Assembly (NCBI RefSeq): GCF_003334315.1
Contig: NZ_QOWR01000020.1
Length of the DNA stretch: 64,000 nucleotides
Source: Escherichia coli
GTDB lineage: Bacteria; Pseudomonadota; Gammaproteobacteria; Enterobacterales; Enterobacteriaceae
Direction: 5' to 3' (one strand)
Shown: in pieces, positions 33,694 to 41,209 of the stretch
Layout: every line of letters starts with the position of its first letter
How positions within the stretch are numbered: position 1 is the stretch's first letter
The notes under the pieces: generated by a model
What the model saw: the letters and a program-made list of their open reading frames with translations, nothing else
Database searches by the model: none
Told to the model about the DNA's origin: nothing
Program-made: the position numbers and the translations under genes

Positions 33694-34599
33694 ATGTCTG
33701 CCGCAGGAAAGAGCAACCCACTGGCAATCAGTGGCCTGGTTGTGCTCACACTTATCTGGAGTTATAGCTGGATTTTCATGAAGCAAGTCACCAGTTACAT
33801 CGGTGCCTTCGACTTTACCGCCTTACGCTGCATTTTCGGCGCTCTCGTTTTATTCATCGTCCTTTTATTACGTGGTCGCGGAATGCGCCCGACACCGTTT
33901 AAATACACCTTAGCCATTGCCCTGTTACAAACCTGCGGGATGGTTGGTCTGGCGCAGTGGGCGTTGGTCAGCGGAGGTGCGGGGAAGGTGGCGATCCTGA
34001 GCTATACCATGCCGTTCTGGGTGGTGATTTTCGCCGCGTTGTTTCTCGGTGAACGCCTGCGACGTGGGCAATATTTCGCGATTCTGATTGCCGCTTTCGG
34101 CTTATTTTTGGTGTTGCAGCCGTGGCAACTCGATTTCTCTTCGATGAAAAGTGCCATGCTGGCAATCCTCTCCGGCGTCAGTTGGGGGGCGAGCGCGATT
34201 GTTGCTAAACGTCTGTATGCCCGTCATCCGCGCGTGGATTTATTGTCGTTAACATCCTGGCAGATGCTGTATGCGGCGCTGGTGATGAGTGTGGTCGCTT
34301 TACTGGTGCCGCAACGTGAAATTGACTGGCAGCCCACCGTGTTCTGGGCGCTGGCCTACAGTGCGATTCTGGCGACGGCACTGGCGTGGAGCTTATGGTT
34401 GTTTGTATTGAAAAACTTGCCTGCCAGTATTGCCAGCTTAAGCACACTGGCCGTTCCCGTTTGCGGCGTACTCTTTTCCTGGTGGCTGCTCGGCGAGAAT
34501 CCGGGGGCCGTTGAAGGTAGCGGTATTGTGCTGATTGTGCTGGCACTGGCGCTGGTGAGCCGTAAGAAAAAAGAAGCCGTCAGTGTAAAAAGGATCTGA
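33694..34599 (+). CDS. yijE: EamA/DMT-family inner-membrane transporter YijE (301 aa)
   Basis: ORF-track starts at an upstream GTG; ATG gives [26 protein letters not shown]; about 10 TM segments. Confidence 0.88.
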
Positions 34600-34625
34600 A
34601 TTTTTTCTTCATGTGGGGCGATCTC

Positions 34626-35243
34626 TTATTTAACAAAATAACGATAATGCCCCACCATCCGCCAGTTAAACAGCACATCTTCTTCCTGCGCGCCTGCGCC
34701 AATGTTATGTATCACCAGCGGCGTACCGTCGCGGGCGAAGCCATCTGAAACCACCCCAATATGTGCCAGCCCGTTATCCAGTCGCCAGGAGACAATATCG
34801 CCCGCTTGATAGTCACTGGGGTTCTTGCTGGTGGGGCGTGTTTTATCATGGCGGCTAAACCAGGTTTCCAGATTAGGCACCCGACGGTGATCGATGTTGC
34901 TGTCCGGGCGCTTTAACTTCCATTTTTGCGGGTACTCAGCAAAATTCTTCGCCATATCTTCGTGAACCAGTTTCTGCAAATCGACCTTCTGGCTGCGCAA
35001 TGCGCGGATCACCACATCGGAACATACACCGCGTTCTTGCGGAACATCACCGCCAGGATAAGTAAGCTGCACATACGCCGGATCGTAAAATAGCGTGCTG
35101 CCAATTTGCTGTCTGGCACCGTCTGCGATGGCAAGGTTGGTATTGGCCTGGATTTGTACCACGGTTGGTGGAACGGCGGGAGATTTTAAGGAGTGGCTGG
35201 TAAATGCCGTTAGCAGGCTGAGCAGCGCCAGTGAAGCTTTCAT
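34626..35243 (-). CDS. yijF: Uncharacterized periplasmic protein YijF (DUF1287), 205 aa
   Basis: Signal peptide MKASLALLSLLTAFTSHS; synteny. Confidence 0.88.
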   Translation of the reverse strand: MKASLALLSLLTAFTSHSLKSPAVPPTVVQIQANTNLAIADGARQQIGSTLFYDPAYVQLTYPGGDVPQERGVCSDVVIRALRSQKVDLQKLVHEDMAKNFAEYPQKWKLKRPDSNIDHRRVPNLETWFSRHDKTRPTSKNPSDYQAGDIVSWRLDNGLAHIGVVSDGFARDGTPLVIHNIGAGAQEEDVLFNWRMVGHYRYFVK

Positions 35244-35374
35244 CTGGTTCGTCCGTGAAAATAAGAGTCACAGATTCGACCTTCCGGGCTAACGATTGTT
35301 CTGTAGAGAAAATGTCCAGAAGCGGATAAAAAATTCCTGAACAACGTGGGAGTTTCAGATTACTGGCACAGAGT

Positions 35375-35472
35375 GCCGGATGCGGAGTGAACGCCTTATC
35401 CGGCCTACAAAAGCACGCAAATTCAATATATTGCAGAGATTGCGTAGGCCTGATAAGCGTAGCGCATCAGGC
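35375..35472. repeat. BIME-like unit (REP - spacer - inverted REP)
   Basis: GCCGGATGCGGAGTGAACGCCTTATCCGGCCTAC ... CAAATTCAATA ... GTAGGCCTGATAAGCGTAGCGCATCAGGC; paralogous to 25538-25635. Confidence 0.75.
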
Positions 35473-35517
35473 AATTTTGCGTTCAAACTCCCGGACAAGC
35501 CGGGAGTTTGGAGTAGG

Positions 35518-36621
35518 TTATTCCCACTCTTGCAGGAAACGCTGACCGTACTGGTCGGCTACCAGCAGAGCGGCGTAAACCTGATCTGGCGTCGCGCCGC
35601 CAGGCATGTTGTGAATGGTTTCACCTTCTGCACATGCCGCTTCTGCCACAATTCGCATTTTCGCCGGGACATCTTCTTTAATATCCAGTTGAGCGAGAGT
35701 TATTGGCAAACCTACCGCATGGCTAAGGGCAGCTACGGTTTCGATTTCCTCCACCGGCGCATTTTCCAGAACCAGCTGCGTCAGCGTACCGAATGCCACT
35801 TTTTCACCGTGATAATAGTGATGCGCGTCCGGGATAGCGGTCAGGCCGTTATGCACTGCGTGCGCCGCAGCCAGACCACCACTTTCAAAACCAACACCGC
35901 TCAAATAGGTGTTCGCTTCAATCACGCGCTCCAGCGCCGGAGTCACTACATGCTGTTCGGCAGCAAGCATCGCTTTTTCGCCTTCTTCCAGCAGGGTGTT
36001 GTAGCACAGTTCAGCCAGTGCCAGCGCAGCCTGGGTGCACTTGCCGCCCGCCATGGTGGTCGCGCCGCTACGAGAGCAGGCACGCGCTTCAAACCAGGTT
36101 GCCAGCGCATCGCCGATACCCGCCGCTAACAGACGTGCAGGTGCGCCAGCGACGATTTTGGTGTCGACAATGACCATATTCGGGTTATTTGGCAACAGCA
36201 GATAGCGGTCAAACTCACCCTCATCGGTGTAGATAACAGACAATGCGCTGCACGGTGCATCGGTAGAGGCGATAGTCGGTGCGATCGCTACCGGAACACC
36301 CATGAAATGTGCCAGTGCTTTGGCAGTATCGAGGGTTTTTCCGCCACCGATACCGAGAATTGCGCCACACTGCGCAGTCTCCGCGATGCCACGCAGACGG
36401 TCGATCTCATTTTGCGAACATTCACCGCCAAACGGCGCAATTTCTACTACCAGTCCAGCATCTTTAAAGCTTTTCTCGACAGTGGATTGAGCAAAACCTA
36501 AAACAAATTTGTCACCCACCACTAACCAGCGTTCTGCCAGCGGCTTCAGGTATTCGCCCAGACGATTAATCACATCAGCGCCCTGGATGTATTTACCCGG
36601 TGATTGAATAATGCGGTCCAT
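35518..36621 (-). CDS. gldA: Glycerol dehydrogenase (367 aa)
   Basis: Start trimmed to [24 protein letters not shown]; iron-containing ADH family ([10 protein letters not shown]). Confidence 0.95.
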
Positions 36622-36631
36622 AATTGCTCCT

Positions 36632-37294
36632 TTAGAGATGAGTAGTGCCAAATGCGGCATTCCAGTCGTGTTCGAACTTCTCTATAGCTGACTCTACCGC
36701 AGGGGTGTTGAGCATTTGTTGCGCTACATCTAAGGGCAGGGTGATGGATTCACATCCTGCCAGTAAACAGTCCAGCGCCTGACGCGGCGTTTTAAAGCTG
36801 GCCGCCAGCACCATGCTTTCTGGCGCGTGCATTTCTAACAGCGTTTGCAGCTCCTGAACCGTACGAATGCCGTCCCCGCCCTGGGCATCTACGCGGTTAA
36901 CATACGCAGCAACGTATTTTGCCCCTGCCAGTGCGGCTAATAACCCTTGTGCGGCGCTATATACAGCGGTGCCAAGTGTAGTAATACCCTCTTTTTTCAG
37001 CAACTTAATGGCGGCCAGACCTTCGGAAGTCACCGGGATTTTCACCACAATGCCCGGAATGGCGTCGCGCAGGCGCTTCGCTTCTTCCACCATACCCTGC
37101 GCGTCACGACTCATAGTCTGAGCAAACAGAATGCCCTCATCACCAATCGCTTTTTGCAGACGCGGCAGCACTTCCCAGATGGACTCCTTGCTGGCAGCGA
37201 TAATGCTCGGGTTAGTTGTCACCCCGGCAATGGGGAATATGCGTGCCAGACGTTCGACTTCTGCGACGTTAGCGGTGTCCAGATACAGTTCCAT
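36632..37294 (-). CDS. fsaB: Fructose-6-phosphate aldolase 2 (220 aa)
   Basis: [32 protein letters not shown] transaldolase-like TIM barrel. Confidence 0.95.
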
Positions 37295-37305
37295 GATGTT
37301 TCCTT

Positions 37306-39807
37306 TTACAGTTCCAGTTCATGTTGCAGCAGGCTGGCGATAGCGTCGGCAGAGGCGGCGTTAACCAGCGCGTTACGGAATTCTTCGTGCATGATGCGGC
37401 GAGCGAGGCGCGAGAAAATGCGCATATGCTGATCGCCCGCAGCGTGTTTGTTCAGGGTTAACATAATGATGAATTGCGCTTCATCATCGCCCCAGCGCAC
37501 CGGCGCTTGCAGACGCGCTACGCTGATGGTGGATTGCTCAATGTGTTCTGATTTGCTGTGGGGAATGGCAAAACTAAAGCCCAGACCGGTAGAGAAAACG
37601 GCCTCGCGCGCCCATAAGTCGGCTTCCAGTTTACGCGGATAGCGGCAGCGGCCCGCCAGCAGCAGGTTATCGGTCATGCCTTTGAGCACTTCTTCTTTGC
37701 TGCGCCAGTCACTTTCCAGCGTGATGCACTCGGCGGTGACCAGCGGTGCGTCCTGTTGGGTCATGCGGAATTGCGCCAGCAGATGTTCCACTTCCAGCGA
37801 AGTACGGCAGGCCATTGCCTGGTTGAGCAACTGGCGGCACTCACGGCTATCAAGTTGCGCCATTCGCGCTTTCGCCGCCGGAATTGACGGTGCGCTCATG
37901 CTGAGTTCATCCAGCCCTAAACCGACCAGCAACGGCAGCACGGAACCTTTCGCTCCCAGCTCACCGCACAGACCAATCCATTTGCCCTGGCGATGCACCG
38001 CCTGCACGGCGTAATCGAGCGCCCGCAAGAATGCCGGATTCAGGCTGTTGTAGTGACGAGTAACCTTAGCGTTATCGCGATCCACCGCCAGCAGATATTG
38101 CGTCAGGTCATTACTACCAATACTAAAGAAATCAATCTCTTCGCAGCATTGATCGATGATGAACATCACCGACGGCACTTCCAGCATAATGCCGAGCTGG
38201 ATCTTCTCATCAAACGGAATGTGTTCGTTACGCAGTTGCTGTTTGGCTTCCGCCAGTTTTTCTTTCACCCATAAGATCTCTTCCATTGAGGAGATCATCG
38301 GGATCATGATTTTCAGGCTGCCGTGAGCAGAGGCGCGCAGGATTGACCGTAGTTGTGTGGTAAACAACGACGCGTATTCTTCATAAATACGCACCGCGCG
38401 ATAACCGAGGAACGGGTTAGCTTCTGCCGGAATGTTCAGATAATCAACGGGTTTATCACCGCCAATGTCCATAGTGCGCACAATAATGCTGCGTCCGTTG
38501 GCAGACTCCAGCGCCTGACAAAAAATGTTGTACAGCTCGCTTTCACCCGGTGCACTGGTGCGATCCATATAGAGCATTTCAGTGCGGAACAAACCAACGC
38601 CTTCCGCACCATTGCCGAATGCGGCCTGCGCTTCCACGGAGTGAGCGATGTTAGCGGCAATTTCAATACGGATACCGTCAGCGGTACGGGCTTGTTGGGT
38701 CAGCCAGACACGCTGTTGCTCACGAAGGGCGTCCTGTACGCGGGCTTCTTGCTGATAATAACGAGCTACGGCTTCCCCTGGCTCAACCACAATCGCCCTA
38801 GCGTTGCCGTCGATATAAATCGTTTGATGCTGCCACGGAGTGAGGGCATCAATATCCACACCAACCAGTGTCGGAATGTTGAACGAACGGGCAAGGATCA
38901 CCGTATGTGAGGTGGTGCCGCCGCTTTTGAGCAACAATCCTTTGAGGTGATTTTTATCCAGTTCGAGGAACTGGCTGGGGGTCAGTTCATCAGCCATACA
39001 AATGGCGGGCTGCGTCAGTTTTCCCGGTGCCGGGAAGCGTTGCTCACCGTAGATTTGCTGGAGTAACTGGAAGCAGACGTCGCGTACGTCCAGGGCACGT
39101 TCTTGCAGGTAGCTGCTGCTGGAACGGGAAAACTCTTCGCAAAAGTGATTCGCGCTGGCAACAATTGCTTCGGCGCAGCTTAATCCGGCGCTGACGCCTG
39201 CCAGTAAATGTTCGCGCAGGGAAGTATCGCCAGCCAGGGATCGGTGAGCTTCCAGAATCGCGCTGGTAGCACCGTCGCTATCCAGCAGACGAAACTCAAT
39301 GTTTTTCAGTACCAGCGTCAGGCCGTTTTCCAGTGCGGATTGCTCGGCGTCAACGCCTTTGGCTGCGGGAAGATTACCCAGCGCATTGAGATCTAAAGAA
39401 GAGATCGGCGTCAGAATGCCGCCTGCACTACCGCTGCACACGGTGCGGGCGCGGATAATTTGCGGATTCAGATTGGTCAGTGAAACCGGCAGTGGTTCCA
39501 GTTCGTCAGATTTAACTTCCGCCAGCGGCGCATCGCAGTGGGGGAATTCATCGCGCAGCCATTGGCTTAAACGCTGGTGCGCTTCCTGTTCGTCGGCCCC
39601 GGAAATCAGTAACTGGCAGTTATCGCCCGCCAGCGTATCGGTGCCAATCAGCGCAAGGGCGCTTTTGGCGTTGCCCTTGCGGTCAGTGCGCAGGTTATGC
39701 CACTCAATTTGTGATGAAAAAGTATTACACAGCGTTTCAACGTGGCTTGCCGGACGCGCATGTACGCCGTTAGGTAGCTCACAAATAAATTCCACAATCA
39801 GGGCCAT
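37306..39807 (-). CDS. ptsA: Multidomain PTS protein: HPr-like / Enzyme I-like / EIIA(Fru-type) (833 aa)
   Basis: N-terminal HPr-like segment (GVHARPAS), central PEP-utilizing Enzyme I domain, C-terminal EIIA type-2 domain. Confidence 0.93.
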
Positions 39808-40115
39808 TGCCTCTCTCCCGGTACGGTTTTCTGTTTACAGGATAAGAGCGCACGGCAACGGCCTGCCATGTGACAAATCTGCCAAAAGCTGGACAAATGT
39901 AATGTAACCGTCAATTTGCGACGCGTCTCACAAGACGCTGTTTTGCGGCATGCTTCCGGTTTATCGCAAGTTATGAGGCGGATCGCATTTTTGTACTGAT
40001 ATTACAAAAGTCCAGTAAATGGCCTTTTTATCCACTGTTTGCTCCGCCTGCGATTGCCTATTGTTTCCTCCATCAAAAATATGGACATGGGCTTTCGCAA
40101 GCCCGGGAGCAGCTT

Positions 40116-41195
40116 ATGAATGAGTTGGTGCAGATCCTGAAAAATACCCGTCAGCATTTAATGACGGGCGTTTCACACATGATTCCCTTCGTGGTATCGG
40201 GCGGTATTTTGCTGGCGGTTTCCGTCATGTTGTATGGCAAAGGCGCAGTGCCGGATGCCGTAGCCGATCCAAATCTGAAAAAACTGTTTGATATCGGCGT
40301 TGCGGGCTTGACGCTGATGGTGCCTTTCCTCGCAGCGTACATCGGTTATTCCATTGCAGAGCGTTCTGCGCTGGCTCCGTGCGCTATCGGTGCCTGGGTT
40401 GGTAACAGCTTTGGTGCGGGCTTCTTTGGTGCACTGATCGCCGGGATTATCGGCGGCATCGTGGTGCATTACCTGAAGAAAATTCCGGTGCATAAAGTTC
40501 TGCGCTCGGTGATGCCTATCTTCATTATTCCTATCGTCGGCACACTGATTACCGCAGGCATCATGATGTGGGGCTTGGGCGAGCCTGTAGGGGCGTTGAC
40601 CAACAGCCTGACTCAGTGGCTTCAGGGGATGCAGCAGGGCAGCATTGTTATGCTGGCGGTGATCATGGGTCTGATGCTGGCGTTCGATATGGGCGGTCCG
40701 GTTAACAAAGTGGCCTATGCCTTCATGCTGATTTGCGTTGCTCAGGGTGTTTATACCGTGGTGGCCATCGCTGCCGTGGGTATTTGTATCCCGCCGCTGG
40801 GGATGGGGCTGGCGACGCTGATTGGTCGTAAAAATTTCTCCGCAGAAGAGCGCGAAACCGGCAAAGCGGCACTGGTGATGGGCTGTGTTGGCGTTACTGA
40901 AGGGGCGATTCCTTTCGCCGCTGCCGATCCGCTGCGTGTCATTCCTTCCATCATGGTCGGTTCAGTTTGTGGTGCAGTAACTGCGGCGCTGGTCGGTGCG
41001 CAGTGCTATGCAGGCTGGGGTGGTCTGATTGTGCTGCCGGTGGTTGAAGGCAAGCTGGGTTATATCGCAGCAGTGGCTGTCGGAGCAGTGGTGACGGCTG
41101 TTTGTGTGAACGTGCTGAAAAGTCTGGCGCGTAAAAATGGGTCTTCGACTGATGAAAAAGAAGACGACCTGGATTTGGATTTTGAAATTAATTAA
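40116..41195 (+). CDS. frwC: PTS fructose-like EIIC permease (359 aa)
   Basis: Polytopic membrane ORF, acidic C-terminus; divergent from ptsA. Confidence 0.93.
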   Translation: MNELVQILKNTRQHLMTGVSHMIPFVVSGGILLAVSVMLYGKGAVPDAVADPNLKKLFDIGVAGLTLMVPFLAAYIGYSIAERSALAPCAIGAWVGNSFGAGFFGALIAGIIGGIVVHYLKKIPVHKVLRSVMPIFIIPIVGTLITAGIMMWGLGEPVGALTNSLTQWLQGMQQGSIVMLAVIMGLMLAFDMGGPVNKVAYAFMLICVAQGVYTVVAIAAVGICIPPLGMGLATLIGRKNFSAEERETGKAALVMGCVGVTEGAIPFAAADPLRVIPSIMVGSVCGAVTAALVGAQCYAGWGGLIVLPVVEGKLGYIAAVAVGAVVTAVCVNVLKSLARKNGSSTDEKEDDLDLDFEIN

Positions 41196-41209
41196 TTGAG
41201 GAACGAGCC

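Follow-up and report, generated by a model that had tools for sequence, protein, structure and literature searches.

The closest described counterpart of the DNA analysed here is the pair of divergent operons ptsA-fsaB-gldA (b3947-b3945) and frwCB-pflDC-frwD (b3949-b3953) of Escherichia coli K-12, the locus of a 'radical-mediated glycolysis'. Our window, the whole stretch of 64,000 nucleotides of contig NZ_QOWR01000020.1 (E. coli assembly GCF_003334315.1), carries the same genes in the same order, with the same spacing and the same proteins, at positions 35518 to 45065. Nothing material differs; the window holds another strain's copy. The locus is already known: it is well annotated and has been explained functionally since 2024 by a published anaerobic pathway for 1,5-anhydro-sugars.

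In this pathway a phosphotransferase system (PTS) phosphorylates 1,5-anhydroglucitol or 1,5-anhydromannitol to the 6-phosphate (Ma et al. JACS 2024 146:26187, as summarised in section 5.1 of PMC12441222). According to the same summary, the glycyl radical enzymes YbiW and PflD convert the 6-phosphates to 1-deoxyfructose-6-phosphate, and E. coli is able to grow on the anhydro-sugar under strict anaerobiosis (PMC12441222). Both the PTS step and the PflD reaction have thus been shown by others. The remaining chemistry reportedly consists of two steps: FsaA or FsaB is said to split 1-deoxyfructose-6-phosphate into glyceraldehyde-3-phosphate and hydroxyacetone, and GldA is said to reduce the hydroxyacetone to 1,2-propanediol. 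With this pathway FsaB, GldA, PtsA and the Frw PTS acquire the physiological role that had long been missing; earlier, the operon's role had been called unclear and those of fsaA and fsaB 'enigmatic' (PMC6643234, PMC7767278). The locus accounts for the fermentation of 1,5-anhydroglucitol and 1,5-anhydromannitol by E. coli and many gut bacteria, a discovery that is already published; both compounds are sugar analogues that come from the diet and from the host, and they matter for glycaemic markers and for the neutropenia of glycogen storage disease type Ib (GSD-Ib).

A second E. coli locus, ybiY-ybiW / fsaA (b0823-b0825), is built on a similar plan, with a PFL2-family glycyl radical enzyme and its activase adjoining, and divergent from, an Fsa aldolase, as in the PflD cluster. 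YbiW matches PflD over its full length at about 480 bits, compared with 1741 bits for PflD itself, and is placed in the same pathway with 1,5-anhydroglucitol-6-phosphate as its substrate (PMC12441222, in the same summary). Unlike the window, that locus has no PTS genes, no gldA and no AraC regulator.

Two divergent operons as a proposed catabolic unit

We read the two divergent operons of the window as one catabolic unit for using 1,5-anhydro-hexitols under anaerobic conditions, with 1,5-anhydromannitol as the main substrate and 1,5-anhydroglucitol as a further one, and give this reading a probability of about 0.82. The gene identities behind it come from NCBIfam equivalog models scoring above their curated cut-offs and from the RefSeq annotation of E. 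coli chromosomes that are 100% identical, of which there are several for the 35-46 kb part of the window. On these chromosomes the order is yijF, gldA, fsa and ptsP (= ptsA/frwA), followed on the opposite strand by frwC, frwB, pflD, pflC and frwD, and then by yijO. When this part of the window was compared with the complete E. coli genomes (n = 5426), using a 10-kb query and a presence criterion of at least 80%, the query was found in 5393 of them. The locus is core E. coli, a real conserved locus and no chance pattern.

At the centre of the plus-strand operon lies pflD (41581-43878), which encodes a glycyl radical enzyme of the PFL2/dehydratase family with Gly741 in the motif RVAGY (NF007437, 1724.8 bits; TIGR01774), described in print as an anhydro-sugar-6-phosphate dehydratase (PMC12441222, section 5.1), and which matches PDB entry 8yjo, 'Probable dehydratase PflD', over its full length (residues 1-765, 1741 bits). 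Beside it, pflC (43844-44722, plus strand) encodes the radical S-adenosylmethionine (SAM) activase of PflD, with the motif CX3CX2C at residues 47-54 (NF007483 equivalog). The pair consists of a PFL2-family enzyme with its glycyl radical motif and a radical-SAM activase, and is co-located in the window with a PTS, an Fsa-type aldolase and a GldA-type dehydrogenase, the combination that marks an anhydro-sugar cluster.

The aldolase and the dehydrogenase belong to the minus-strand operon. The first-pass annotation had placed ptsA, fsaB and gldA on the strand opposite frwC, and the positions of the open reading frames (ORFs), NCBIfam and RefSeq all bear this out. The 220-residue product of fsaB (36632-37294) is a class I aldolase of the fructose-6-phosphate type, above cut-off for both NF009296 and TIGR00875 and with the Schiff-base Lys85 present. 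The product of gldA (35518-36621, 367 residues) is a nicotinamide adenine dinucleotide (NAD)-dependent glycerol / L-1,2-propanediol dehydrogenase, identified by RefSeq and by the equivalog NF047954 (752.6 bits against a cut-off of 700), whose NCBIfam name is bifunctional L-1,2-propanediol/glycerol dehydrogenase. The mechanical ORF of gldA extends to 36660; the RefSeq start at 36621 is preceded by an AGGAG ribosome-binding site. Within the operon the gaps are 10 bp (gldA-fsaB) and 11 bp (fsaB-ptsA), so that the close spacing noted earlier stands while the sizes then given, 11-12 bp, were one base off. The three genes have been treated as one operon, in which replacement of ptsA by a kanamycin cassette raises fsaB 123-fold and gldA 28-fold (PMC6643234).

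The phosphorelay of the unit can be followed residue by residue. The gene ptsA (frwA; 37306-39807, minus strand) encodes a fused HPr-Enzyme I-EIIA(Fru) multiphosphoryl transfer protein of 833 residues, in which the Pfam domains follow each other as PTS-HPr (7-84), Enzyme I (EI, 123-653) and PTS_EIIA_2 (690-829). The Enzyme I part comprises the PEP-utilisers N, mobile and C segments (123-237, 266-335 and 363-653), and the protein scores 478 bits against TIGR01417 (PTS_I_fam), for which the cut-off is 341.7. With HPr, EI and EIIA-2 in a single polypeptide, PtsA is a multiphosphoryl transfer protein of the PtsA/FrwA, FryA type. Its relay and catalytic residues are all intact: His16 (NGVHARPA), His301 (GGTTSHT), Cys614 (CGE) and His750 (FAIPH). 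On the plus strand, frwC (40116-41195; NF007787 equivalog, 720 bits) encodes the fructose-family EIIC permease, frwB (41210-41530; NF007783 equivalog) an EIIB with Cys10 in the motif TACPSGVAHT, and frwD (44724-45065; NF007747 equivalog) a second EIIB; the EIIB phosphorylation residue Cys10 is present in both. Judged by their sequences, PtsA, FrwB, FrwD and FrwC make up a complete EI-HPr-EIIA-EIIB-EIIC relay. A complete phosphorelay formed by PtsA and the Frw EIIB and EIIC proteins had also been claimed for the window from the outset, and the domain set and relay residues agree with that claim. It is an old proposal, made by Reizer et al. in 1995 for a cluster with a 'unique Enzyme I' and a fructose-like permease, as that paper is cited in PMC6643234 (its reference 34). 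In the literature searched we found no report of phosphotransfer from phosphoenolpyruvate (PEP) to FrwB or FrwD.

The proposed unit would work as follows. PEP would phosphorylate PtsA, the phosphoryl group passing from His301 of EI to His16 of HPr and His750 of EIIA and then to Cys10 of FrwB and FrwD, and FrwC would import the anhydro-sugar and release its 6-phosphate. PflD, once activated by PflC, would open the ring through a radical cleavage of a C-O bond that yields 1-deoxy-fructose-6-phosphate. FsaB would split this product into glyceraldehyde-3-phosphate, which would enter glycolysis, and hydroxyacetone, which GldA would reduce with NADH to 1,2-propanediol for excretion. The last two steps fit with the NCBIfam name of GldA, with the induction of gldA by hydroxyacetone (Truniger and Boos, as cited in PMC6643234) and with hydroxyacetone being a recognised donor substrate of Fsa (PMC7767278).

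A different route through the same enzymes had been put forward in the first-pass annotation. There, the Frw PTS would import a fructose-like sugar to give fructose-6-phosphate (F6P), FsaB would cleave F6P to dihydroxyacetone (DHA) and glyceraldehyde-3-phosphate (G3P), and GldA would reduce DHA to glycerol. We consider this very improbable, and the route as proposed is wrong or incomplete because it overlooked the radical enzyme PflD/PflC, which lies inside the frw operon and is the actual bridge. Since the product of PflD is 1-deoxy-fructose-6-phosphate, the aldolase would yield hydroxyacetone and not DHA, and GldA would yield 1,2-propanediol and not glycerol, as these two steps are reported. 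The individual reactions of the F6P route do exist in vitro: Fsa reversibly cleaves F6P to DHA and G3P, and DHA is the preferred substrate of GldA (PMC7767278, PMC6643234). The Frw components belong to the fructose PTS family. In vivo, however, the route failed with wild-type FsaA: a pfkA pfkB zwf mutant given wild-type fsaA on a plasmid did not regain growth on glucose, and 3 weeks yielded no suppressors in which chromosomal fsaA or fsaB had been activated (PMC7767278). The engineered bypass of Guitart Font and Sprenger (2020), which joins the Fsa and GldA families in exactly this route, needed the FsaA A129S variant, synthetic promoters (Ptac-gldA) and several further deletions, and was described by its authors as 'new-to-nature' and not as a native role (PMC7767278). 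In the same work F6P cleavage was assayed at 27 mM F6P for wild-type FSAA and at 7.5 mM for the A129S variant, which is consistent with a weak affinity of the wild-type enzyme for F6P. The F6P route would also leave pflD and pflC without a role, although they are the most tightly linked genes of the cluster (64/66 loci, see below) and PflD has a demonstrated substrate that is a different one (PMC12441222, section 5.1), and making glycerol from F6P would lose half of the hexose.

Linkage of the cluster across PflD loci

A scan of 100,044 species genomes for PflD gave 80 loci, onto which nine proteins of the window were mapped by tblastn; linkage was counted in the 66 loci with full flanks. A YijO-like AraC regulator is found in 65 of these and PflC in 64, followed by PtsA, FrwB and FrwD (61 each), FrwC (60), Fsa (57) and GldA (37). 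The E. coli gene order is kept in Escherichia, Citrobacter and Enterobacter, but it is not fixed across the loci. Specifically, gldA is missing from the loci of Rahnella, Hafnia and Serratia; Gilliamella and Vibrio have the aldolase gene after pflC, on the same strand as pflD; Necropsobacter has fsa on the far side of yijO; Klebsiella- and Yersinia-type loci have no fsa nearby; and Kluyvera-type loci and that of Edwardsiella piscicida are reduced to pflD-pflC-yijO. That the genes stay together through so many rearrangements speaks for a functional unit built around the radical enzyme, in which the aldolase is often included and the dehydrogenase is optional.

In the locus of Vibrio harveyi (L080:13126-19512) an RmlD-like NAD-dependent reductase gene is inserted between pflC and fsa, and beyond yijO there follow genes for a GldA-like dehydrogenase, a sugar phosphatase of the HAD family and a mannose-6-phosphate isomerase. 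The GldA-like gene has been re-recruited to the other side of the cluster, and the extra genes hint at a mannose-configured substrate or at an extended pathway.

We also note that both EIIB genes, frwB and frwD, are each retained in 61/66 PflD loci, where one EIIB would suffice; two substrates or a regulatory role are possible reasons for keeping two.

Some loci carry further genes. In Kluyvera- and Klebsiella-type loci, which have no fsa or gldA nearby, a gene of the PhyH family (Fe/2-oxoglutarate dioxygenase-like) lies between pflC or frwD and the yijO-like gene, on the minus strand at L032:13237-14115 and L052:13631-14398. Two small plus-strand ORFs in loci of these types were rejected as antisense artefacts of the minus-strand PhyH-family gene. 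In Pluralibacter, Phytobacter and one Citrobacter a second PflD-like glycyl radical enzyme with 35% identity is encoded about 3.4 kb beyond gldA, on the minus strand (at about position 478 in L016, 400 in L025 and 422 in L074).

Candidate mirrored operators between ptsA and frwC

The two operons diverge from an intergenic region of 308 bp (39808-40115), exactly as first delimited. The ptsA-frwC spacer is 301-316 bp long in Enterobacteriaceae genera and in Klebsiella- and Yersinia-type loci, and 307-471 bp long in Hafnia, Rahnella, Serratia, Enterobacillus, Gilliamella, Zophobihabitans, Necropsobacter and Vibrio. Aligning the region from 21 genera reveals invariant blocks, two of which are inverted copies of one 36-nt motif, ATTACA-N3-RTCCAG-N4-TG-N5-TTT-N-TC. 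The copy facing ptsA, ATTACATTTGTCCAGCTTTTGGCAGATTTGTCACAT (39868-39903, minus strand; conserved in the 21 genera), scores 49.1 bits with a position weight matrix (PWM) built from 42 sites, and the copy facing frwC, ATTACAAAAGTCCAGTAAATGGCCTTTTTATCCACT (40001-40036, plus strand), scores 53.0 bits; both are presumed YijO sites. The two copies have the same base at 18 of the 22 positions that are at least 80% conserved in each, as against a maximum of 9 in other registers. An exact-seed repeat search missed the inverted pair, which was recovered only by phylogenetic footprinting and the PWM.

With the threshold set at 14 bits, the PWM hits the 64-kb window at the two operator copies and nowhere else, and exactly two hits are found in 70 of 81 sequences (the 80 loci and the window). 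In genera outside the training set, too, no hit in the 22-kb loci lies outside this intergenic region: both mirrored copies are present in Zophobihabitans, Gilliamella and Vibrio, and in Necropsobacter only the ptsA-facing copy is above threshold. In the loci without PTS genes (Kluyvera-type and Edwardsiella piscicida) a single copy lies about 75-110 bp upstream of pflD. The motif is absent from the ybiW-fsaA locus in a PWM scan, which places that locus outside the presumed YijO regulon.

The candidate ligand is the product of yijO (45052-45903, minus strand), an AraC-family regulator by its C-terminal matches. The regulator gene is linked to its presumed target, as in an AraC/XylS-activated promoter, and yijO adjoins the cluster in the window; across the loci YijO is also the only regulator that travels with the 36-nt motif. 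It is listed as uncharacterised in surveys of 2016 and 2022 (PMC4797297, PMC9308461). We found no description of the operator or of YijO targets in the searchable literature, a scope that lies apart from the closed-access paper of Ma et al. (2024) and from regulatory databases. Both operons are probably regulated in common, with YijO as the predicted regulator.

Each operator is accompanied by a CRP-type site. On the ptsA side, TGTGA-N6-TCGCA (39917-39932) is the sequence read towards ptsA and matches 9 of 10 half-site positions. Others have shown that Crp binds the ptsA-fsaB-gldA promoter, and report that Crp activates it (PMC8085971). At 73 of 74 ptsA-facing copies among the 80 loci and the window, the distance from the operator to the centre of this site, on its distal side, is exactly 21 nt, and 61 of the sites match 9-10 of 10 half-site positions. 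On the frwC side a CRP/FNR-family site, TATGA-N6-TCGCA (39972-39987), matches 8 of 10 CRP half-site positions; most loci have a CRP-type site at the same 21-nt offset, and 53 of these sites match 8/10. The left half of the frwC-side site is FNR-like (TTGA) in most genera, and may add oxygen control.

Downstream of the operators lie candidate -10 hexamers in conserved positions, TATCCT for the ptsA promoter (39839-39844, minus strand; a conserved block in the 21-genus alignment) and TATTGT for the frwC promoter (40059-40064, plus strand; within the nearly invariant block CCTATTGT). In representative loci, read by eye, a TATnnT hexamer lies 21-23 nt proximal of the operators, and in Gilliamella and Vibrio TACTAT or TATATT stands at the frwC -10 offset. 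If transcription starts 7 nt after these hexamers, which our promoter numbering assumes, the CRP-type sites are centred at about -92.5 (ptsA) and -91.5 (frwC), and the operators span about -36 to -71. When 35000-46200 was scanned with a simple sigma-70 model, no convincing promoter emerged between ptsA and frwC, which is what promoters that depend on an activator would lead one to expect. Nor did an Rfam scan of 34500-46500 detect any RNA family there.

In the araBAD and rhaBAD promoters CRP sits near -92/-93 and an AraC/XylS-family activator overlaps the -35 region. The arrangement predicted for both promoters here is alike, with a CRP-type site at -91.5 or -92.5, an operator of about 36 nt ending near -36 and a weak -35, and the operator itself reads as two direct half-sites about 20 bp apart. 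Unlike in araBAD and rhaBAD, the module is present twice, in mirror image, and would serve two divergent operons; yijO, the presumed activator gene, is 5 kb distant and convergent with frwD, and the starts and the binding are predicted.

We propose that the 308-bp region is a mirror-duplicated module, each half consisting of a CRP-family site at about -92, the 36-nt tandem-half-site operator at about -36 to -71 and a -10 element, and that both operons would be driven from it. YijO, sensing the anhydro-sugar or its phosphate, would be the likely activator that switches both on, and the module would be the signature of the PflD regulon, conserved all the way from Enterobacteriaceae to Vibrio. 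We hold this for somewhat better than an even bet; the operators, their ligand and the promoter positions are what we infer in this analysis. The assignment of the mirrored operator and CRP module to YijO is the sole addition that we did not find in the accessible literature, a modest regulatory prediction; if true, it would explain what one of the still uncharacterised transcription factors of E. coli does, and would make available a pair of divergent, inducible promoters. The first-pass annotation had suspected common regulation in the 308-bp region, and mirrored operators and CRP-type sites now support this in silico. Its broader idea that the two operons are tied together likewise survives as functional and regulatory coupling, on the grounds of synteny, the mirrored operators, the CRP-type sites and Crp binding (PMC8085971), and fails as regards the metabolic route.

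Several points weigh against our reading of the locus and of its regulation. On the regulatory side, YijO as operator ligand and the promoter positions are predictions from the DNA, and in E. coli alone the inverted similarity of the two copies is modest: 22/34 positions, about 3 standard deviations above dinucleotide shuffles, a value reached by 2 of 200. On the metabolic side, the reactions of FsaB and GldA are reported ones with indirect support, and so is the precise preference given above for the substrate of the Frw PTS. gldA is absent from 29/66 and fsa from 9/66 full-flank PflD loci, so that these steps can come from elsewhere or be dispensed with. Finally, both gldA and fsaB are also documented in glycerol and DHA metabolism (PMC6643234, PMC8719807), and the operon is therefore not exclusive to the anhydro-sugar pathway.

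The regulatory points speak for an alternative in which the mirrored blocks would bind a factor other than YijO, or would be conserved elements of a promoter or UP-like kind, with the two operons under independent regulation except for CRP. We consider this unlikely, because the copies agree at 18 of the 22 conserved positions and at no more than 9 in any other register, because the motif occurs nowhere else in the 64 kb, and because it tracks the YijO-like gene even in PTS-less loci, where it stands upstream of pflD. In addition, direct half-sites spaced by about 20 bp and a position of -36 to -71 fit the general picture of AraC-family class II activators.

The metabolic points bear on another alternative, in which ptsA-fsaB-gldA would serve mainly glycerol and DHA. 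GldA would convert glycerol to DHA, FsaB would combine DHA and G3P to F6P (a 'fructose-phosphate bypass'), PtsA might pass phosphoryl groups to DHA kinase, and the adjacency to the frw-pfl genes would be incidental. There is genetic evidence of this kind: gldA is essential in fermentative glycerol use and an fsaA fsaB double mutant consumes less glycerol (PMC8719807), deletion of gldA or fsaB slows growth on DHA and over-expression through ptsA::kan doubles it (PMC6643234), and the N-terminal part of PtsA resembles DhaM (NF008478, E = 7e-25). However, DHA does not induce the operon, gldA being 2.5-fold down (PMC6643234), and single fsa mutants have no glycerol phenotype, the bypass being non-essential (PMC8719807). 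Moreover, fsa, and in part gldA, stays linked to pflDC, frw and yijO where the loci are rearranged, and the operator is shared; both observations speak against an incidental adjacency. We therefore regard a mainly glycerol- or DHA-related function as improbable and the glycerol/DHA role as secondary, a further use of these enzymes with a modest contribution, alongside the anhydro-sugar pathway that we prefer.

Hairpins, repeats and overlapping genes

On the minus strand a GC-rich hairpin, AAACTCCCGG-ACAAG-CCGGGAGTTT (35485-35509), lies 9 bp past the gldA stop, with repetitive extragenic palindromic (REP) elements beyond it. As a putative terminator it is the probable end of the ptsA-fsaB-gldA transcript; a terminator scan of 35000-46200 found no terminator-like sites on the minus strand inside 35518-39807. 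Palindromic elements of the REP type or of the bacterial interspersed mosaic element (BIME) type occupy the yijF-gldA spacer (35334-35451) and the region downstream of yijO (45974-46171), and in the scan of 34500-46500 they matched naRNA4 and ES036, two REP-derived Rfam families, below threshold.

Within the divergent region, the terminator scan flagged a terminator-like palindrome at 39923-39938 (GCGTCTCACAAGACGC with a T-rich tail). It was rejected as a terminator or attenuator and is probably incidental, since its right arm lacks conservation beyond E. coli and E. albertii and the palindrome runs into the CRP half-site that is conserved. A second GC-rich hairpin, GGGCTT-TCGC-AAGCCC (40089-40104), lies in the presumed frwC leader and abuts the Shine-Dalgarno sequence GGGAG. 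It folds no better than shuffled sequences (z = -0.96); its GGGC/GCCC stem recurs in many Enterobacteriaceae, with variable loops.

Two overlaps between genes may also matter for expression. The start of pflC lies 35 bp inside the 3' end of pflD (43844-43878), the mechanical pflC ORF beginning earlier, at 43775, which suggests that the radical enzyme and its activase are translationally coupled. At the far end of the operon frwD and yijO converge, and their 3' ends overlap by 14 bp (45052-45065), and read-through from the frw-pfl operon could in this way act negatively on the expression of the regulator. The pair frwD-yijO is among the gene pairs named in the ExcludonFinder paper, apparently in its non-divergent part (PMC12288877).

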